Shown one piece after another: positions 7,991 to 28,441 of a DNA stretch of 51,109 nt. Every line of letters starts with the position of its first letter. Within the stretch, counting starts at the first letter, position 1. The notes below the pieces were generated by a model. It was given only the letters and a program-made list of their open reading frames with translations, searched no databases and was not told the origin of the DNA. The translations under genes and the position numbers were made by a program. Origin of the DNA: a virus (Duplodnaviria; Caudoviricetes); the IMG/VR virus record IMGVR_UViG_3300049855_000194, positions 1 through 51,109 of that record; one strand, written 5' to 3'.

Positions 7991-8584
7991 TCAGAAATCG
8001 CTAATAATCTGTTTAGCGAATTTCTCTAGTAGTTTGTGATCTCCCTTAACTGCTATGAAAGCTTCGTCTAGCAGGTTCTCGGTTATTCCAGCTTCTGATC
8101 TATGTGTGTCTATTACCGTATCTGTAACTGCGTCCAATTTCTTAATACGATAGACCTTACCACCAAGCCCCTTAACCAAAGTAGCTTCCATATCAAATCG
8201 GGCATCATCAATAATTACAATTATTTCAGTCTCTAGCTTACCCTCATCTACAGCAATTTCTTCCACCTGCTTCTTCAGTATACGTAGAAAGAAATCCTCC
8301 CCAAATCCACCTTCGTGACCAATCCCAGGTTCCTTACGTATAATGTCTGCAAACTTCTGCATGATAAAACGCGGTGTAAGACCCCATTCAGTAAGCGTAG
8401 TTTCTTTATCGCTACCAAACCAGTGAGCTGCTGTGCCACCAAACAAGATATGGCAAGCCATTTTCAAAGGCTGTGCAAAAGATATGCGTACGACGTGATG
8501 AGTCTCTTTTGTTAGTTGCTCTATGTATGTAGCTATGGTGGATTTACCGTGCCCTTTAGGGCCAGTAAGTGCAATGATCTTCAT
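7991..8584 (-). CDS. Deoxynucleoside monophosphate kinase
   Basis: IALTGPKGHGKST, SFAQPLK, TPRFIMQ, IDDARF, HRSE. Confidence 0.88.
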   Translation of the reverse strand: MKIIALTGPKGHGKSTIATYIEQLTKETHHVVRISFAQPLKMACHILFGGTAAHWFGSDKETTLTEWGLTPRFIMQKFADIIRKEPGIGHEGGFGEDFFLRILKKQVEEIAVDEGKLETEIIVIIDDARFDMEATLVKGLGGKVYRIKKLDAVTDTVIDTHRSEAGITENLLDEAFIAVKGDHKLLEKFAKQIISDF

Positions 8585-8616
8585 ATGTTTAATCTTGTTT
8601 GTTTTAGGTTAAGACG

Positions 8617-8654
8617 AGTAAACCCCGCATGTTGTGTAGCATGCGAGGTTTACT
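8617..8654 (-). terminator. Long intergenic hairpin (terminator or RNA processing site)
   Basis: agtaaaccccgcatg / catgcgaggtttact, 15-bp stem with one G-U on the minus strand; weak U-tract. Confidence 0.5.
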
Positions 8655-8669
8655 TTAAATATCTACAGA

Positions 8670-9521
8670 TTAGAACGGTGGTTCGTTATCTGCTTTCGGT
8701 GCTACACGATCAGCAGCTGACTTAGCTGGGCCATTATTATTCAATGGTGTCTCTGGCGGAGTGGCGGTATGCGTATCGTCGGACTCGTTAGTATTCTTAG
8801 ACATAATCTCAGCACGGCGCTCCTTCAGCATATCACAAGTAGCTTTAAGCTCATCATGTGCGATGACAGGAGTGGCCTTGGAGCTACCAATCTGAGGAGT
8901 ATAGAACTTGTCGGTATCTTTAGTTTCTAGAATACTGTAGAGTTCCCACTGGTTGTACCAGATAGGTGCTTTAACTACACCATCTTCAAAACGGATCTTA
9001 GAATTCTTCAGCTTGTTCAGCCACATCTTACCAGTACGATGACCAGTCTTAGAGAAGTTCAGCACATACAGCTGGCTGAAATCCGTAAACCCATCCATCT
9101 CATTTGCCATAGCTACAATGAAATTGTAGTACTCTGTAACCCTGGCGCGATCCTTACCATCTACTTTGATAGTTTCCCAGCGCTCAGCAACCTTGGCTAG
9201 CTCACTGGAAGGATCATTGCTACGATTAAGGATACGCTGGTCCTTAGCGGCTTTACGATTCGGATTCCATTCAATCCATTCAAGCCAGAAGATCAAAGGA
9301 ACTACGAACTTTTTGGACTCCTTTGGAATGATAACTGTCTTAGTAGATACATCAGCAAAGTCACCTGACTTAGCGGCATCTTCAGTAACTAGCGGAGAGA
9401 GCGCCTGCATCAGCCGCAAATTCGGCATTATCATGTCGCGCTGGCGCATATCCTTGAAGTCGTCATCGGCTCCGCTGTAGATAGCTGGCATGTTAGCCTT
9501 GGTTGTGATAATCTCGCTCAT
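8670..9521 (-). CDS. Putative single-stranded DNA-binding / recombination protein
   Basis: DMIMPNLRLMQALSP motif, disordered tail ending EPPF, located in the replication cluster with its own promoter. Confidence 0.5.
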   Translation of the reverse strand: MSEIITTKANMPAIYSGADDDFKDMRQRDMIMPNLRLMQALSPLVTEDAAKSGDFADVSTKTVIIPKESKKFVVPLIFWLEWIEWNPNRKAAKDQRILNRSNDPSSELAKVAERWETIKVDGKDRARVTEYYNFIVAMANEMDGFTDFSQLYVLNFSKTGHRTGKMWLNKLKNSKIRFEDGVVKAPIWYNQWELYSILETKDTDKFYTPQIGSSKATPVIAHDELKATCDMLKERRAEIMSKNTNESDDTHTATPPETPLNNNGPAKSAADRVAPKADNEPPF

Positions 9522-9551
9522 TTTGAGTCTCTTTCTAGTGCGATTTGCACT

Positions 9552-9590
9552 GGGTATACTTTAATATACCATGGGTTTATGAAAAGTCAA
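9552..9590 (-). promoter_or_regulatory. Sigma70-like promoter TTGACT-N16-TATATT
   Basis: -35 at 9585-9590, -10 at 9563-9568; 20 nt identical to the promoter at 17844-17863. Confidence 0.8.
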
Positions 9591-9606
9591 GCAGTTTCTT
9601 TAGCAG

Positions 9607-10101
9607 TTAAATCTCTTGAGTTTGGACGCAAGAGTGGGTGATTAAAGCGTCGAATATATCATGGTCCCTCTGGCAATACGACTTAGGTACACCATCTTTA
9701 CGCCATACCAGCTTCGTTATTCCAGTAGCTATAATGTGCTTAGTACAGATAGGGCAAGGTTTATGTGTACAGAAAATGGCACACCCATCTACTGTTTCTT
9801 TAGCGTTCAAGATAGCATTCATCTCAGCATGGATTACAAAGTCATACTTTGTAATCTTATTGAAATCATCTGTATTCTCCCACACTTCCTTGAAATCTTT
9901 TACAGCTGAGGGGAAGCCATTATAACCTAGAGATATGATCTTCTTACTATAAGGATTGAAGACTACTGAACCTACCTTTGTTCGTGGATCTTTGGAGCGT
10001 CTAGATATTTCATCAGCTAGTTTTAAACACACGTCCACGAACTCGTATTCGCTTGTCAAAGTCGCTGTCGTGTTTGATATTAGACTTAAGGAACGCATCA
10101 T
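9607..10101 (-). CDS. dCMP deaminase
   Basis: SKDPRTKVG, GYNGFP, HAEMNAI, PCPIC. Confidence 0.92.
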   Translation of the reverse strand: MMRSLSLISNTTATLTSEYEFVDVCLKLADEISRRSKDPRTKVGSVVFNPYSKKIISLGYNGFPSAVKDFKEVWENTDDFNKITKYDFVIHAEMNAILNAKETVDGCAIFCTHKPCPICTKHIIATGITKLVWRKDGVPKSYCQRDHDIFDALITHSCVQTQEI

Positions 10102-10312
10102 TCTCTTTCTGAGATTGCTCTCGTATATGTTTAGGAACAGTTAGTTCCATACATGTGTTACAACAGAAGTACTTACAGTGCCATACAGTGTTGACACTAT
10201 ATAGAACTTTAAATCCCCTACCGCATGGTGTACCGCACTTAGGTGCGCTACAGACCTCCGGCAGCTTCGATTTTTCTGAGGTATTTTTTACTGGAGTTCT
10301 TTGGGCCGGCAT
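10013..10312 (-). CDS. Small Cys-rich hypothetical protein
   Basis: CSAPKC...FCCNTC; overlaps both neighbours. Confidence 0.4.
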   Translation of the reverse strand: MPAQRTPVKNTSEKSKLPEVCSAPKCGTPCGRGFKVLYSVNTVWHCKYFCCNTCMELTVPKHIREQSQKENDAFLKSNIKHDSDFDKRIRVRGRVFKTS

Positions 10313-10661
10313 TGTAATATTGGACGCCTTTGCGCCAATCTCCTTTAGAGTAGTTCTTATCTAGCCACAGAAGATAATCCGTAGCTATCTTTGTAGCGAA
10401 GACAAAGTCAGTTTCCATCCTATAGATACTGCTTCGTCCATTATATACTTGTTTAAATGCCGCTGGTGTAATCTGATATGGGCCGACTTCATGAGCAGCT
10501 CCACGAGATCTGTCTACATAGATGAAGTTCCCATGGGCGTCCATGTAGCTGTTTGTTTCAACCTTTAGAATTGCTTTTAAGACGCTTGGAGGAACTTGCC
10601 TTTCCTGGCTCAATGCTTGGGTTGATATGTGTAGAATGAGAATCACTAAAAATAACTTCAT
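10248..10661 (-). CDS. Lytic transglycosylase / lysozyme-fold protein with signal peptide (likely start MKLFLV)
   Basis: AILKVET catalytic Glu, GPYQIT, YYNAGP; hydrophobic N-terminus. Confidence 0.8.
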   Translation of the reverse strand: MKLFLVILILHISTQALSQERQVPPSVLKAILKVETNSYMDAHGNFIYVDRSRGAAHEVGPYQITPAAFKQVYNGRSSIYRMETDFVFATKIATDYLLWLDKNYSKGDWRKGVQYYNAGPKNSSKKYLRKIEAAGGL

Positions 10662-10965
10662 AAGACTTTCCCGGTATATCCGCATTAAATTGAACGGCTA
10701 TTACATAGTCAGTTAGGCGTCCGATTAGTTTCTTATCTACAGCTGTACCATCTTCTAGCCAGTAATAACCGTCGCGTTTGTTGTCATAGAATATATCCCT
10801 CTGCCTACCATTTATTACAGCAGAGAGGGTTGCGCTACCATCTTTAAGTAAGATGCAGTTACCAAGTCTAATCTTTTCCTCGGTGTTGAAGCGCATATAT
10901 AAGCGCGAGACAGCTACCGCAGCAGCAAAGCCAAGCAAGAATCCGCTCAATAGGTGAAAGATCAT
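10558..10965 (-). CDS. Hypothetical protein with N-terminal transmembrane segment
   Basis: MIFHLLSGFLLGFAAAVAV. Confidence 0.55.
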   Translation of the reverse strand: MIFHLLSGFLLGFAAAVAVSRLYMRFNTEEKIRLGNCILLKDGSATLSAVINGRQRDIFYDNKRDGYYWLEDGTAVDKKLIGRLTDYVIAVQFNADIPGKSYEVIFSDSHSTHINPSIEPGKASSSKRLKSNSKG

Positions 10966-11029
10966 TGCTGGTTATTCCTGAAAATCCAACAGCAGTTAGG
11001 ATATATAGTAATAGGATAGGCCATGTCAT
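10868..11029 (-). CDS. 53-aa membrane peptide with two hydrophobic segments, not in the ORF track
   Basis: My translation is MTWPILLLYILTAVGFSGITSNDLSPIERILAWLCCCGSCLALIYALQHRGKD; ATGA overlap with the upstream gene. Confidence 0.4.
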   Translation of the reverse strand: MTWPILLLYILTAVGFSGITSNDLSPIERILAWLCCCGSCLALIYALQHRGKD

Positions 11030-11571
11030 TTCTTAACCTTTCTCATGGTAAGTGTAGGCTTATCAAACATTCCAATCGTTGCAGGAATCCGCAACTTAGG
11101 ATCGGCAGATTCCTTAGAGTAGCCTTGCTCGGTTACAAGCCCATTAATGAAGCTAGTGAGAGCATTTGCATTAAAGTCCTCGGATACAAGTTCGTTACCG
11201 ATAGGATGTTTCTTAAGCCATTCTACTACAAGAGGCTTGTTCTCCTTAGATACAGACACGTATGTCTTACTACCTGGAGTAAACTTATATCCACCAGCGG
11301 AGATGCTGTCCATATCACTAGCTAGCATTTCGTTGCTGACTTTCTCTGCAATCTGCGGCATGTGAGTATTAGCTGCCGTAGTGACAGACTTACATGCATC
11401 AAGCAAGCTATCTAAGATAAGATAGCATTTAAGTTTAGTCATCAGGTCTGCACGTGTGCAGCCGAAGGCTACTGGCTCTAGAACCTGTAGCAAATCATCT
11501 TTAGCTTTTTCAAACTGCTGAACCACGATGTTCAGATGGTCGAGCAGCGCTGTTTCGTTAGGAGCGGTCAT
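11026..11571 (-). CDS. Phage hypothetical protein of a type often found beside SNF2 helicases
   Basis: Helical N-terminus, VEWLKKH...NANALTSFI motif, gene context. Confidence 0.55.
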   Translation of the reverse strand: MTAPNETALLDHLNIVVQQFEKAKDDLLQVLEPVAFGCTRADLMTKLKCYLILDSLLDACKSVTTAANTHMPQIAEKVSNEMLASDMDSISAGGYKFTPGSKTYVSVSKENKPLVVEWLKKHPIGNELVSEDFNANALTSFINGLVTEQGYSKESADPKLRIPATIGMFDKPTLTMRKVKK

Positions 11572-15611: not shown

Positions 15612-15887
15612 CTATGTTGGGGTTTGTTTGGTTGCGTACAGATTTATCAAATCTTCTAGTGTGAGCATAGCAAATCTTTTGCAGTACTCATACTTATCTT
15701 TGTTGCCAGCTATCCATTCCTGATTTGTATTGATCCACTTCGCCAAAAGGTCATGCTCATCTATACAGCAATCCTTCTTAGAAGGAAGCAGTAAGACTTG
15801 CGAATACAAAGTAAGTTGCCTGAGTTCGTACTGTCGTACAAATCCAGGAGCTTCTTTATGTATTCTGATTATTTCCTCTGGTCGCAT
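15612..15887 (-). CDS. Hypothetical protein
   Basis: ORF in the minus-strand run. Confidence 0.6.
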   Translation of the reverse strand: MRPEEIIRIHKEAPGFVRQYELRQLTLYSQVLLLPSKKDCCIDEHDLLAKWINTNQEWIAGNKDKYEYCKRFAMLTLEDLINLYATKQTPT

Positions 15888-16227
15888 GGTCGGCTATCTT
15901 TTCGTTTAGTTTATCTTTGAGTGCAGCAATCTCTCGGACGAGCTTCTCCATCTTAGCTGTGACAGCTTCGATCTCATTCACATCATCTATGGAGCCTTCG
16001 TGCTTAGCTAGGAACGCTGTTATCTTTGTAAGATGAGCGCGCCTATCGGAAGTTTCCTTCTCTAGCTCTGGTACTTCTTTGCTAAGCTCAGCTAATTGCT
16101 TACGCTTAGACTCAAGCGTCTTTTCACGCACACTTAGGCAGTGTTCCATCCATAGCGTGTCATTCTTAGCACGCTTTATTCGCCTACCTAAATCTTTAGC
16201 TTTCTCTAGCGTCTCTAGAACAGACAT
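15856..16227 (-). CDS. Coiled-coil hypothetical protein (start corrected to 16227)
   Basis: GAAAGGA Shine-Dalgarno before MSVLET; the longer track ORF overlaps tRNA-Thr. Confidence 0.65.
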   Translation of the reverse strand: MSVLETLEKAKDLGRRIKRAKNDTLWMEHCLSVREKTLESKRKQLAELSKEVPELEKETSDRRAHLTKITAFLAKHEGSIDDVNEIEAVTAKMEKLVREIAALKDKLNEKIADHATRGNNQNT

Positions 16228-16253
16228 ATATTTCCTTTCTCGGAAACGGGGAA

Positions 16254-16329
16254 TGGTGCTGCTTGTAAGATTCGAACTCACGACCCACGCATTACAAATG
16301 CGTTGCTCTACCAGCTGAGCTAAAGCAGC
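16254..16329 (-). tRNA. tRNA-Thr(UGU)
   Basis: GCTGCTTTAGCTCAG...ACGCA-TTTGTAA-TGCGT...GTTCGAATC...GCAGCACCA. Confidence 0.95.
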
Positions 16330-16515
16330 ATATAAATGGACGTCTGTTCCGCCCTGTCATGCCTTTGTTCTCGGGTTAGCCGTGCCCATAGCCGTAACAA
16401 GTACGGACAATTAGTTTGTAATGACTCTAACTCTATGGCCGATGCGTAGCGATGAAGCAAGGTTTCTGTTGTTTGATTGACGACATATACGTTTCTCCGT
16501 ATGGGTTTAGCAAGC

Positions 16516-16593
16516 TGGTGGACACCGTAGGATTTGAACCTACGACCTTCTGCATGTAAAGCAGCGGCTCTAACCGGGCTGAGCTAGGCGTCC
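16516..16593 (-). tRNA. tRNA-Val(UAC)
   Basis: GGACGCCTAGCTCAG...CTGC-TTTACAT-GCAG...GTTCAAATC...GTCCACCA. Confidence 0.93.
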
Positions 16594-16598
16594 GAAAC

Positions 16599-16893
16599 GC
16601 ACGTTTATTTTGGAGCGTTAAACGTGCAAACATCGCTAGTAGTTATATGTCTACCAACATAAGCCTCCAACTTCAACAAGCACCCTTTGGTCGCTATCCA
16701 GCATGATCAATTTTCCTCAGCCTTTGTGCGCTGCAAAAGCATGTGAGGGAATCTATCTACTGGACTTGCTTAGATGACGATCGGCTAGTTAACTGAACAT
16801 ATGAGGGCAGGTAGATGCTCGCATCACAGATGAAGTTTTCGGCTTAAAAGAAACCCTAGTTTGTTTTAACGTATTAAGCTAGGAAACATTACG
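16599..16893 (-). ncRNA. Candidate structured ncRNA between tRNAs: two pseudoknots flanking a long irregular hairpin
   Basis: No credible ORF; complementary segments found by eye (see findings). Confidence 0.5.
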
Positions 16894-16992
16894 GAGGGTT
16901 AGCGTCCCTCAACTCTAAGCATCGTAGTTATACTAAGTATCTATACAGAGTGGCCTACCTCCATATAAAAAATGATATAAGTATGTCAGCTT

Positions 16993-17079
16993 TGGTGCGG
17001 AAGGTGGGACTCGAACCCACACGAATTTTACTTCGCTAGAACCTAAACCTAGTGCGTCTGCCAATTCCGCCACTACCGC
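16993..17079 (-). tRNA. tRNA-Leu(UAG)
   Basis: GCGGTAGTGGCGGAATTGGCAGACGC, CTAGG-TTTAGGT-TCTAG, long variable arm, ends in ACCA. Confidence 0.93.
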
Positions 17080-17087
17080 GTTTAAAG

Positions 17088-17160
17088 TGGGCCAGCTAGG
17101 ATTTGAACCTAGAACCTAGAGATTATGAGTCCCTTGCTCTGACCGTTAAGCTACTGGCCC
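17088..17160 (-). tRNA. tRNA with CAU anticodon, probably Ile2 (lysidine, reads AUA); elongator Met not excluded; no encoded CCA
   Basis: GGGCCAG acceptor stem; AGGGA-CTCATAA-TCTCT arm resembles Ile2 tRNAs; no initiator features. Confidence 0.85.
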
Positions 17161-17291
17161 AGTTGTCAAAGATATGCAGCGTTTATACAGAGTTATGCTG
17201 CGATCTGTGGTGTCAGAGTAATGTGGTCCTACCAATCTAACTCTGATAAGATACCCTCGCTAGATTTTTAGGTCTAGTGAGGGTATTTAAC

Positions 17292-17798
17292 TTACAAACC
17301 GAGCTTCTGGCGGAGTTCAGCCAACTGCTGTTCCAGCATGCTGATCTTGTTGTCCTTCTCAGCAAGCTTAGCCTTGGTGTTAGCAACACCGTCGCCACGC
17401 TTCTTGGTCCAGCCTTCAAACAGCTTACGAACCTTGGTGAGAGCCTGCAAGGTGTAGTAGCTGGTGCGACCTTCCTTGTTGCCTGGGAAGGTCGTCTTGT
17501 CTAGCGAGTCAACAGCGTCGACGAACGCATCGACATCGGTGACGCCATTCTTAGCGAGGATACCAACCAGCGCGCTATGCAGCTCGACGAGGACAGCAGG
17601 AGCGTCCACATCCATAGCGCGAGGAGTAGGAATTGGCTCACCGTTGGCGTCTTCACTAGCAGAGAACTGCTTAATAGCCTTGCTGGCGTCCGCCTTGCCA
17701 TCTTCATCTTCGTCATTCGCAGCCGAATTGGAAGCCGAGGTAGCAGTTGCCGGGGCGTTGACAGAAACCGAGGCACCGGGAGGGAGAGGCATGTTCAT
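17292..17798 (-). CDS. Hypothetical protein with GC-rich codon usage and C-terminal coiled coil
   Basis: 168-aa ORF directly downstream of the 17844-17882 promoter. Confidence 0.75.
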   Translation of the reverse strand: MNMPLPPGASVSVNAPATATSASNSAANDEDEDGKADASKAIKQFSASEDANGEPIPTPRAMDVDAPAVLVELHSALVGILAKNGVTDVDAFVDAVDSLDKTTFPGNKEGRTSYYTLQALTKVRKLFEGWTKKRGDGVANTKAKLAEKDNKISMLEQQLAELRQKLGL

Positions 17799-20223: not shown

Positions 20224-20378
20224 AGTATTTTCAACGCTTTCTTGTGTTGGTCTATGTGTTCGTGATCGATGAATTTGGATGCTAGAACTGTCTTACTTTT
20301 CTTAGACAGCATTACGAAGTCTGATAGCTGTTCTTCTGGAGATAGAGGATGACTGTAATGTACTTTGTAGAGGTTCAT
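20175..20378 (-). CDS. Hypothetical protein
   Basis: ATGA-coupled 67-aa ORF. Confidence 0.5.
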   Translation of the reverse strand: MNLYKVHYSHPLSPEEQLSDFVMLSKKSKTVLASKFIDHEHIDQHKKALKILCKLTATSSTKRTSSL

Positions 20379-20737
20379 GGCTTTAAGCTATATCTCATAG
20401 CTACCTCTTCGAGCGCTATTTTCCAATTTTCTACATTACTACCGTCATGGGTTCGTTGAAGGTCTAATAGAAATTCGTAGGTTGTATCTCCCTCTTCTAC
20501 AGCTACTCCAGACTTTACAAGCATTGGAAGTGCATTAGCTAGAGAACCCTCCATAGAAGGATGGTAGAATTCATCTTTGATGAGACAACCTACTGCACAT
20601 TTGCGTCCATCATTGTCACGATATTTACAGGCTTCATAGGGTTCGCCAGTCCATAAAGATGGACGTATAATTACAGAACGAGCATTCTGCTTCAGCATGT
20701 GCTCCTTAACGGTATCGTAAATTTCCTGTGTGTTCAT
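20375..20737 (-). CDS. Phage hypothetical protein (start corrected to MNTQEIYD)
   Basis: CKYR...GRKCAVGCLI...LQRTHD motif; ATGA overlap with the upstream 59-aa ORF. Confidence 0.7.
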   Translation of the reverse strand: MNTQEIYDTVKEHMLKQNARSVIIRPSLWTGEPYEACKYRDNDGRKCAVGCLIKDEFYHPSMEGSLANALPMLVKSGVAVEEGDTTYEFLLDLQRTHDGSNVENWKIALEEVAMRYSLKP

Positions 20738-20913
20738 ACTGGATATACCTTGTATATGGTGTAGATGCATATGATTGACATCCCTACAGTCATTGTAAGG
20801 ATTGTGAATGTTTCTACTTTTGTGAAGTAGGTGAACCTCGTGCGATATGAGAGGTAGAGTAGCATAAGCGTCCATAATGTTAGCAGTATTGTGGAGCCGA
20901 TTAGAAAGTTCAT
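20734..20913 (-). CDS. 59-aa membrane protein with two hydrophobic segments, not in the ORF track
   Basis: MNFLIGSTILLTLWTLMLLYL...; GAAAGGA Shine-Dalgarno. Confidence 0.6.
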   Translation of the reverse strand: MNFLIGSTILLTLWTLMLLYLSYRTRFTYFTKVETFTILTMTVGMSIICIYTIYKVYPV

Positions 20914-20938: not shown

Positions 20939-20991
20939 TTTGACCATATGACGTAGCAGGTTTGTTAAGTCTGCTACGTCATATGGTCAAA
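20939..20991. repeat. Perfect 21-bp inverted repeat
   Basis: tttgaccatatgacgtagcag - 11 nt - ctgctacgtcatatggtcaaa. Confidence 0.9.
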
Positions 20992-25822: not shown

Positions 25823-28441
25823 ATGTCAGTCACCATCACCGGCTCAAAATACGGCGACGTAGCACTATCCGCAGTCGGTACGACGACGGTGACGGTGGGC
25901 AGCGGAACTTTTAGTAGCGGGGATTTCGCACGCACAACGCCAAGACTCGTCGGTCTGTTTTCGTCTGCCGGAGCATTCAAGGGCATCAGCTACGTACGTG
26001 CTTATGTTAGCACCACTGAATTACAGCTTGAACGCAAGTTTTTCGATCCGAAAGACGGTGCTGAACTGACACAAGTTTCCGGGGACATTCTGCTCGTAAG
26101 TAAGAATTGGGCCGACATTGCCACGACAGGCATTGCCGTTAGCGCACACAACGTCACGGTTACTGATCGCCTAGAGTGGGGTACGTCAGGTGACGCGAAG
26201 TCGGTGTTCTTCCATGACGAGGGGAAGTACGTCACCTTCTCAAATAATGACGGAAGCACAGATACAAATAAGGTTTTTGGCGGTGTCGTATCGCAAGGGC
26301 ATTTACTAGACTTTGTGAATGGCACTACGTACGGGGGTTGCACCTGGGAAACACTGGCAACCAATAACGGCATTGGCTTACTGACGGCACGCAGCACGTC
26401 AGCATATGGCGTTTTCTATAATCACACATTCCGCAATAATGCGGAATCTGCCGGATACGGCTATGTCGGATCTGGTGCAGATGTAACACCGACCCCACCA
26501 ACTGACTGGGGTCGACTCACCATTCTAGATTGCGTGATAGACTCGCTGGACATGGCTTACGGGCCGGGGCCAATGGCAAACCCGACTCACCAATTACTGC
26601 GTAAGAGTCGCATGGTGTCGAGCAAATCACTCTACTCAATCTTGAGTCGCATTCTTGATGCGCCGAGTGTAGACAATGAGTTTAAGATCGTTGCTAACTC
26701 TGATCGACCGTTGTCCGTTTTTGGTAGCGACAGCGCAGGTAGCCACGTCGTAGGATCGCCCGCCGATGGGCGTACAACCGTGCGAGATATTGGCAACGAC
26801 AACTACTTCTGGCGATCAGGCGGAACACCTTCACAATCAGTGGTTGCGACGAATTGTATCACGTCAGACAAGCGATCAGGCGCAGACCTGGGAGGCGAAC
26901 AAACAAACGCCACTGTGTCGTTCCGGTACACGGATTCATATATCAATCTACAGGCTGCCACGACTGGCGTTGTGCGTCGCGACGGGGATTCGACAGTAGT
27001 TTCTAGCATCGTAGGCACCGGCACATCCTGGGCACCCGTCGTTGAACATGACAACTGGACGGGATACAGCCGCAACTCTGGCTATCCAAAAGGCCCTTGG
27101 ACCTACTCATTTAAGGCTTACGGATTCGGCCCCTTGTCGGGGGCCATTGCTGCAAGCACCGTTGACCTTGGTGTTGCTGGGTCGGCTGACAATGTCGCAT
27201 TCGGCGGCCCACTTATCCAAGTCCCCGACGCCAGCGTCACGCTTTCACAGGCTGCCGCACTGGCACTCACCACACTGCCGACGCTCGACAATGTCTATGA
27301 CCGCACCATAGCGTGGTCAGTCACAGACGCGACGAATGCACAGTATCCGTCTCTGTCTGCATACATGGCAGTCGCGATGGGAACATCGCTAGACTTTGGC
27401 TCACGCAATATTGTCATTGACGCCACTGCTGGCACAGCATTCGCAGTAAACACCGGCACAAACACCGTCACCATCAAAGCGACCACCCTTAGCGCCGGTA
27501 CGAAGTTCACGAAGCTGGTCACATCCGGCACAATCTCCTTTGTGAACGGGGCGGCACCATCCGCAACGCTGCCTTACCAATCCAGCGCAGGCACTAGCGT
27601 CCCCGTCACTGCCGCAAGTATCGTCAGCGGCTCGCGTGTGCAGATTTACGACGTGACCAACTCTGTCGAACTTGATAATGTAGTCATCGGTGGAGGCGGC
27701 TACGTGGGCCGACTCACCTGGACGACGAACAAGACGATCAGACTTCGTGCAATGTATTGCAGTGGCGTCACCGCAAAACTTCCTGTCACGTCGATTGCCA
27801 CTCTGACCAATACGGGCGCGAGCTTTCTTGATGTTCAGGTTGACGATCAAGTTTACATCGATGCTGGAATCAACGGCAGCGCGGTTACTGAATTTGCTGG
27901 CGACTATCCGAACGTTCAAATTGATGTGACCGATCCAGATGGAGTCACCACTGTTCCGCGCATCTATGCGTGGTTTGTCAATAACTTGATGACCAGCAGT
28001 GGTATTGCTTCGTTCTTCGGTGGTCTGACTGCCGACGATGGTGCAAACTTTGTCATCAACACGTCGATGATTAATCTCAAGCTCGATAACACCAACGTTT
28101 CCCCAGTGATTATCGGCGGCGGCCGTCTGTACCATGACGACGGCAGCACGGTGATTGCCGCTGCAAGCAACTCGATCCAGATGGACCCCGACCGGGTGTA
28201 TACGATTGAGACGGGAACGAGTGGATTGACCGGGCCTGAGTCGGCGTTGCTGGCGGATATTGCGCCGATCAAAGCAAAGACCGATAATCTCCCGACGGAT
28301 CCAGCTGATCAATCAGTAATACTAGCTGCGATACCCTCAGCAGCAACGACAGCAACCGCTGTACGTACCGAGTTAACAACAGAACTAGCTTTGATACCTA
28401 AAATCAAACTAGATACCGGAGCCATAGGAGCCGCACTATAA
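25823..28441 (+). CDS. Large virion/fibre-like protein, GC-rich, probably horizontally acquired
   Basis: 872 aa, rich in T/S/G/A/V; codon usage differs from the flanking genes. Confidence 0.65.
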   Translation: MSVTITGSKYGDVALSAVGTTTVTVGSGTFSSGDFARTTPRLVGLFSSAGAFKGISYVRAYVSTTELQLERKFFDPKDGAELTQVSGDILLVSKNWADIATTGIAVSAHNVTVTDRLEWGTSGDAKSVFFHDEGKYVTFSNNDGSTDTNKVFGGVVSQGHLLDFVNGTTYGGCTWETLATNNGIGLLTARSTSAYGVFYNHTFRNNAESAGYGYVGSGADVTPTPPTDWGRLTILDCVIDSLDMAYGPGPMANPTHQLLRKSRMVSSKSLYSILSRILDAPSVDNEFKIVANSDRPLSVFGSDSAGSHVVGSPADGRTTVRDIGNDNYFWRSGGTPSQSVVATNCITSDKRSGADLGGEQTNATVSFRYTDSYINLQAATTGVVRRDGDSTVVSSIVGTGTSWAPVVEHDNWTGYSRNSGYPKGPWTYSFKAYGFGPLSGAIAASTVDLGVAGSADNVAFGGPLIQVPDASVTLSQAAALALTTLPTLDNVYDRTIAWSVTDATNAQYPSLSAYMAVAMGTSLDFGSRNIVIDATAGTAFAVNTGTNTVTIKATTLSAGTKFTKLVTSGTISFVNGAAPSATLPYQSSAGTSVPVTAASIVSGSRVQIYDVTNSVELDNVVIGGGGYVGRLTWTTNKTIRLRAMYCSGVTAKLPVTSIATLTNTGASFLDVQVDDQVYIDAGINGSAVTEFAGDYPNVQIDVTDPDGVTTVPRIYAWFVNNLMTSSGIASFFGGLTADDGANFVINTSMINLKLDNTNVSPVIIGGGRLYHDDGSTVIAAASNSIQMDPDRVYTIETGTSGLTGPESALLADIAPIKAKTDNLPTDPADQSVILAAIPSAATTATAVRTELTTELALIPKIKLDTGAIGAAL

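Follow-up and report, generated by a model that had tools for sequence, protein, structure and literature searches.

Two diverged copies of a candidate structured RNA module in the transfer RNA island of a Caudoviricetes genome

The virus record IMGVR_UViG_3300049855_000194 (Duplodnaviria; Caudoviricetes), analyzed here over all 51,109 nucleotides (nt; hereafter the window), is complete, has direct terminal repeats and carries an island of transfer RNA (tRNA) genes. Two segments of that island, PK1 and PK2, form a repeat in which pairing is kept by compensatory changes, and they are tentatively read here as diverged copies of one structured RNA module of about 65 nt on the tRNA strand, a possible cis-acting element in the processing of stable RNAs. 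The structure of the module is probably under selection, and its pseudoknot helix, S1, is given slightly less than an even chance of forming. Annotations of tRNA islands in phages usually list the tRNA genes and nothing more, and the cutting and stabilizing of their precursors is known mainly for T4 and, more recently, for ribozyme-flanked tRNAs of gut phages. If the reading is true, a tRNA-linked covarying leader of pseudoknot-like form, together with a spacer found in an RNA library, would bring in a cis element of a new kind and, perhaps, a new small RNA as well. The module is best described as a lineage-restricted, cis-acting leader and a candidate motif rather than an established family.

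On the minus strand PK1 spans 16637-16599 and is followed by GUUUC (16598-16594), which runs up to the first nucleotide of tRNA-Val at 16593. PK2 spans 16893-16855 and is likewise followed by GUUUC. An earlier note, made from the sequence alone, had described both, together with a third segment, PK3; for all three, the sequences and positions that it gave match this strand exactly. The cores of PK1 and PK2 align without a gap across 44 nt in the order S1 5' arm (4 nt), AUGUUU, S2 5' arm (9 nt), a single nucleotide (A16618 or A16874), S1 3' arm (4 nt), two variable letters, AAAA, S2 3' arm (9 nt) and GUUUC; in copy 1, the loop of S2 contains the S1 3' arm and the AAAA. This alignment agrees with the observation in the note that the AUGUUU linker, the A-rich loop and the trailing GUUUC are common to both. 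Homology between the copies reaches further 5' than was described there, taking in a hairpin of 5 base pairs (bp), P0, which abuts S1, and a conserved GUUG; the P0 loops of the two copies are also alike (Table 1). By rule of thumb both crossing loops are long enough, with the 6 nt of loop 1 (L1) spanning the 9-bp S2 and the 6 nt of loop 3 (L3) spanning the 4-bp S1. Both modules share the orientation of the four tRNAs, PK1 standing 5 nt before tRNA-Val and PK2 ahead of a spacer of 212 nt with a long-hairpin fold, the placement that the note had given.

The case for a common structure comes from how the two copies differ. Across the 44-nt core, the two copies agree at 16 of 18 unpaired positions, compared with 12 of 26 paired ones. 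The 13 proposed core pairs make 26 cells in the two copies, and 24 of them pair; six pairs have changed on both sides (three of four in S1, three of nine in S2), and S1 is Watson-Crick at all four pairs in both copies. When the 3' partners were slid by one to three columns as a control, 15-50% of cells paired and no pair was compensated. With P0 included, the three helices pair in 34 of 36 cells and nine of the 18 pairs are compensated, a result equaled by one of 500 column shuffles. Simulated duplication followed by 16 random substitutions produced six or more compensated pairs in one of 10^6 trials, and neutral drift therefore cannot explain them. The covariation of the stems and the conservation of unpaired letters claimed in the earlier note are thereby borne out. 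Taken as a linear pattern, ATGTTT..GTTTC has two occurrences in the window where 0.49 would be expected, and 6 of 100 shuffles reach two.

A related phage retains PK1 next to tRNA-Val. Public sequencing runs were searched with the island, and four aligned to it at 80% likeness; stretches of the island that runs X2-X5 leave uncovered carry no evidential weight. The relative is represented by a 17,722-nt contig (run X2) and a 292-nt contig (run X5), the former aligning in three blocks: tRNA-Thr; tRNA-Val with PK1 (16516-16638); and 16985-17287, which holds tRNA-Leu, tRNA-Met, PK3 and a terminal hairpin. The 185-nt spacer between tRNA-Val and tRNA-Thr (window 16330-16516) is replaced there by 10 letters, and 16639-16984, with PK2 and the 212-nt spacer, by 200 other letters, such that PK1 and tRNA-Val remain one unit between two exchanged spacers. 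The last similar position is 16638, the base directly 5' of S1 in PK1. Judged from this alignment, the island is a mosaic with break points at the edges of tRNAs and of PK1. S1, AUGUUU and L3 of PK1 are unchanged in the relative, which is conservation and not covariation. Four of the five substitutions inside PK1 and PK3 fall on unpaired positions, which make up about 40% of the whole, a weak support (p ~0.09).

The earlier note had presented a module in three copies, of which PK1 and PK2 stand as a gapless, covarying pair and PK3 does not belong with them. PK3 is not a paralogue of the other two and lies outside the module. Covariance models built from the two copies, R1 (44 nt) and R2 (73 nt), were searched over the whole genome with filters off; both PK1 and PK2 were recovered (copy 1, a training sequence, at expectation values (E) of 5e-13 with R1 and 8e-22 with R2), and no minus-strand match covers 17176-17208. 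The one match overlapping PK3 at E <= 10 is on the plus strand (17208-17291, E 4.6). Perfect H-type arrangements of 5+5 bp with similar loop ranges have 41 start sites on the two strands of the window compared with 35.0 ± 9.0 in 200 simulations, so one PK3-type arrangement per 1-kilobase island is expected about a quarter of the time. In the related phage PK3 carries two substitutions (17192 and 17186), both in loops, with two more and one insertion just outside. Neither model found a further convincing copy in the genome, the next-best matches being a hairpin at 17292-17250 (E 0.12), 31329-31271 (E 0.27) and 28385-28412 on the plus strand (E 2.5-3.4).

The best non-self match of R1 is a 14-bp hairpin at 17251-17286 (minus) with the loop CCUAAAAA; it directly follows the stop of the open reading frame (ORF) 17292-17798, is followed by CUUAUC and has one pair broken in the relative (G17254 to U). 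The plus-strand hairpin at 28385-28412 lies in the 3' end of ORF 25823-28441 and has letters like those of S2 of PK2 (CUAGCUU..AUAC..UAAAA..CAAACUAG), a likeness that may be due to chance.

Table 1. Features of the tRNA island and of genes near it, in window positions.
Feature	Position	Strand	Description
Module copy 1 (PK1 extended)	16594..16658	minus	GUUG, P0, S1 5' arm, AUGUUU, S2, tail GUUUC to tRNA-Val -1
P0 of copy 1	16638..16655	minus	GGUAG/CUACU, one G.U pair, loop ACAUAUAA
S1 5' arm of copy 1	16634..16637	minus	AGCG; partner CGCU at 16617-16614
S2 hairpin of copy 1	16599..16627	minus	9 bp; 11-nt loop A-CGCU-CCAAAA
Module copy 2 (PK2 extended)	16850..16913	minus	GUUG, P0, S1, AUGUUU, S2, tail GUUUC
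P0 of copy 2	16910-16894	minus	GAGGG/CCCUC, loop ACGCUAA
S1 of copy 2	16893-16890 with 16873-16870	minus	CGUA with UACG
S2 of copy 2	16883-16855	minus	
Spacer between modules	16638..16849	minus	212 nt; candidate stable RNA
PK3	17208-17176	minus	ACAGA/UCUGU and GCAGC/GCUGC; ends 15 nt before tRNA-Met (17160)
tRNA-Met (CAU)	17160-17087	minus	3' CCA not encoded; acceptor stem then A-CUU
tRNA-Leu (UAG)	17079-16993	minus	CCA encoded
tRNA-Val (UAC)	16593-16516	minus	CCA encoded; begins directly after GUUUC of copy 1
tRNA-Thr (UGU)	16329-16254	minus	CCA encoded
dNMP kinase-like	7991-8584	minus	
Pam3 gp34-like	8670-9521	minus	
dCMP deaminase	9607-10101	minus	
Pam3 gp33-like	11026-11571	minus	

For the processing element that is tentatively preferred here, we infer a mechanism in which the folded core would hold the conserved GUUU stretches single-stranded at a fixed position. 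Of the host endonucleases, ribonuclease (RNase) P could then cleave GUUUC↓G at tRNA-Val, and one of the RNase E type the GU↓UU stretches; RNase E prefers RN↓WUU. The folded core might also insulate the neighboring RNA from mispairing with the leader. By direct reading of the sequence, all four tRNAs and the spacer are preceded by a helix and then N-UUU. The module would be a concrete construct for assays with RNase P and RNase E and for structure probing.

Several results weigh against this reading. The support from S1 alone is modest, the probability that three double-changed pairs stay Watson-Crick being about (1/3)^3 = 0.04. The architecture alone, in the same register and with loose pairing rules, is found 35 times in the window compared with a mean of 33 in 100 simulations. 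In the nested minimum-energy fold of PK1, P0 grows by three pairs in which the AGC of S1 pairs with the conserved GUU, and that AGC is unpaired in the nested ensemble with a probability of 0.00-0.02. The 29 nt of S2 of PK2, folded alone on the minus strand, keep only the outer 5 bp (-2.7 kcal/mol, z -1.1). In the relative, P0 of PK1 and the whole of PK2 are without a counterpart at 80% likeness, and of the three changes in its PK1, two turn GUUUC into GUUAU and the third, A16606 to U, breaks pair 8 of S2 (U16620-A16606). Finally, the evidence consists of two paralogues and one near-identical orthologue, too few for a statistical test of covariation.

Given these points, the two copies could instead be ordinary spacer hairpins that were duplicated and form no pseudoknot, the complementarity of S1 being coincidental and PK2 decaying. 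P0 and S2 would then be real, for example as exonuclease stops or as leftovers of a duplicated spacer. This explanation, which we consider unlikely, would account for the modest probability of S1, the sequestered S1 5' arm of PK1, the weak S2 of PK2, the lack of an alignable PK2 in the relative and the chance frequency of the loose architecture, as well as for S1 duplexes that are weak by themselves (-3.3 and -1.3 kcal/mol). It fits less well with an S1 that is Watson-Crick at four of four pairs in an identical register with three double changes, where slid registers have none, and with the excess of identity at unpaired over paired positions, a distribution typical of a selected fold. Moreover, the competing extension of P0 is not kept in PK2, where it would consist of a U.C followed by two wobble pairs, whereas S1 is.

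We infer that the module acts as RNA on the minus strand, and the folding energies bear on this choice from both sides. S2 folds at least as well on the plus strand: for PK1 alone, -10.0 kcal/mol compared with -9.1 kcal/mol (z -3.63) on the minus strand, and for PK2, where the minus strand gives the five pairs described above, 9 bp with two G.U pairs on the plus strand (-8.2 kcal/mol, z -3.1). Both one-sided changes in S2 of PK2 are thus G.U on the plus strand and C.A and A.C on the minus strand, a further point against the preferred strand. Conversely, the G.U pair in P0 of PK1 exists on the minus strand only, being A.C on the plus strand, which supports the minus strand. With a wobble count of two for plus and one for minus, the strand is not settled by this measure. 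The structure might accordingly act on the plus strand as an antisense RNA, or as DNA in the form of a cruciform or single-strand hairpin that marks cassette borders and is used in recombination or replication. The break in homology at the border of P0 and S1, and the mosaic form of the island at element edges, would suit such a role. This alternative is quite unlikely: the minus strand carries all four tRNA genes of the window and all 16 ORFs of at least 150 amino acids between 2921 and 23602, no promoter-like or terminator-like site was found on the plus strand at the modules, and the differing stem sequences speak against a sequence-specific DNA site.

In a bolder form of the processing reading, which is very doubtful, the three-helix module would be a self-contained processing signal of a new class, set before stable-RNA genes by this phage lineage and moving with its gene as a cassette. 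Travel as a cassette would explain why the homology to the relative ends at the edge of the module. Within a processing-signal reading, the module could also mimic the acceptor arm of a tRNA and recruit RNase P or another tRNA enzyme, or it could be a small catalytic RNA.

A cis-acting RNA that modifies transcription, promoting read-through of hairpin-rich stable-RNA genes, would have precedents. The putL and putR sites of phage HK022 are antiterminator RNAs that follow early promoters, and ribosomal RNA operons have leader and spacer antiterminators. Like the modules, putL and putR are a paralogous pair of cis-acting RNAs, each with two hairpins and of similar size, that share one phage genome and differ in their stems, and the modules, two co-oriented RNAs of about 65 nt in one operon with conserved unpaired letters, likewise precede structured genes. 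However, the put sites come after early promoters while the modules are inside a tRNA island with no promoter-like site just upstream, no Rfam family matches them, and the relative does without an alignable PK2. An antiterminator is highly improbable.

Least weight of all can be given to a ligand-binding H-type riboswitch or a self-cleaving ribozyme that trims the neighboring RNA, even though the module is compact, pseudoknotted and placed beside a tRNA with conserved unpaired nucleotides. In Rfam, searched with cmscan over the whole window at the gathering score, the four matches are all tRNAs; at E <= 10 (15800-17700 and 16590-16995), tRNAs and noise appear and no manA, ribozyme or riboswitch family, the best noise at the modules being CRISPR-DR65 on the plus strand (E 7.7) and blv_FSE (E 6.9). 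This comparison, suggested in the earlier note, confirmed the tRNAs and assigned the modules to no family. Ribozymes of the hepatitis delta virus (HDV) type consist of two nested pseudoknots, in which a P3 hairpin and L3 separate the P2 5' strand from the P1 3' strand. Precedent at phage tRNAs, and the nearest published RNA module there, is provided by the HDV-like theta ribozymes, likewise small and pseudoknotted, which adjoin tRNA genes of gut phages and are proposed to act in tRNA end processing (Kienbeck et al. 2024, PMC10879173). Those ribozymes are proposed to remove 3' trailers; the module differs in being a 5' leader with a simple H-type topology that lacks P3/L3 and P1.1 and has no Rfam match, and the single nucleotide that separates its S1 3' arm from its S2 5' arm leaves no space for an HDV-like P3/L3. 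In addition, no ORF or expression platform follows the module, and conserved letters are changed in the relative.

The earlier note had also suggested a likeness to the manA motif, which does not hold, as manA (RF01745) is matched neither at the gathering score nor at E <= 10. The manA RNA, which has been reported from phages, is structured, has a tentatively assigned pseudoknot and is described as a riboswitch candidate in 5' untranslated regions of protein genes for mannose/fructose metabolism, nucleotide synthesis, ibpA and photosynthesis (Weinberg et al. 2010, PMC2864571). Compared with that description, the context differs in that the module precedes a tRNA and a non-coding spacer and not protein genes.

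Classical H-type pseudoknots with a U-rich L1 and an A-rich L3 are found in telomerase RNA and in the SAM-II and preQ1 riboswitches. The proposed fold of the module has the same order, S1-L1-S2-L2-S1'-L3-S2', with a U-rich L1 (AUGUUU), an A-rich L3 and an L2 of 1 nt, which would allow coaxial stacking; this plan resembles that of triplex-stabilized H-type pseudoknots. Unlike them, it has an S1 of only 4 bp and no expression platform, and it matches none of those families; at E <= 10 there is no match to the models of the preQ1-I/II/III, SAM-II/V, guanidine-III and fluoride riboswitches, and nothing that the module fold would control, whether ORF, ribosome-binding site or terminator, was found. 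L1 starts at the junction and extends along the whole of S2, which leaves no more than two of its U residues able to face the A-U pairs of S2 near the junction. By this geometric reasoning a U-A-U triplex, raised in the earlier note, is not an obvious fit.

Three other ideas about the modules were considered and dropped. If a small ORF began with the AUG in AUGUUU, its frame would differ between the copies, being 7 codons long in PK2 and running through tRNA-Val in PK1. Nor was a sigma-70 promoter in front of the two modules retained; TATAACTAC is not a repeated motif of the genome. An intrinsic terminator was dropped as PK1 has no U tract.

By blastn the island matches other sequences through tRNA similarity only. 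Searches of viral contigs with patterns of the module, in a collection from which records very near the window are possibly hidden, brought up no homologue, only unstructured chance matches among those listed, a further point against the preferred reading. Patterns with 15 and with 17 fixed letters each occur at at least 119 loci; among the matches listed, all foreign ones for the former have at most six of nine S2 pairs, and the best for the latter has seven of nine without a full S1. A pattern of 23 fixed letters and an exact 31-mer of PK1 each gave no match. The protein of ORF 17292-17798, and likewise the helicase alone, revealed no relatives. The SNF2 helicase is at most 31% identical to any record of cultured phages, none of which is close; helicase alignments have best identities of 49, 45 and 43% among viral contigs, identities of no more than 35% among the matches listed for metagenome contigs, and no match among genome contigs. 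Eight loci, from seven helicase relatives (the closest of those scanned) and one pattern match, were searched for tRNAs, which occur in one, and none has an island. Relatives with closer helicases (57-86% identical) do exist. In the whole records of five more distant relatives, one has a tRNA and none an R1 match, which again does not favor the preferred reading. Full-text searches of the literature brought up no account of a leader with a pseudoknot in a tRNA cluster of a phage.

The 212-nt spacer between the modules is a candidate stable RNA inside the tRNA island. Its long hairpin has a folding energy of -60.6 kcal/mol (z -1.97) on the minus strand and -57.0 kcal/mol (z -1.33) on the plus strand. 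Within the spacer there is no ORF of 40 amino acids or more; an ORF at 16433..16633 (minus) starts inside PK1 and runs through tRNA-Val. A metatranscriptome run from another study (X4) yielded a 151-nt contig with a depth of 64.7 that is 100% identical to 16680-16830, the flanks of this stretch having no identical cover and the stretch itself no Rfam match. As the contig carries no strand or end information and may be a stack of duplicate reads, a stable RNA is hinted at and not proven. The tRNA gene cluster of T4 encodes the stable RNAs C and D, non-tRNA stable RNAs amid phage tRNA genes that set a precedent for the spacer.

No nuclease or ligase was found near the island among 20 neighboring ORFs compared with Pfam and 10, partly the same, compared with PHROGs, and on the basis of these scans a processing protein encoded nearby was dropped as a candidate. 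A primase-helicase is among the proteins encoded near the island. The proteins at 7991-11571 (Table 1) hint at functions in the nucleotide pool or in DNA modification and at a relationship to freshwater cyanophage-like siphoviruses. An intergenic 15-bp hairpin (8617-8654, minus), with a short U-containing tail after it, separates ORFs 8670-9521 and 7991-8584. Another intergenic element, a near-perfect inverted repeat with arms of 21-24 bp at 20939-20991, is located just upstream, in gene orientation, of ORF 20375-20875.

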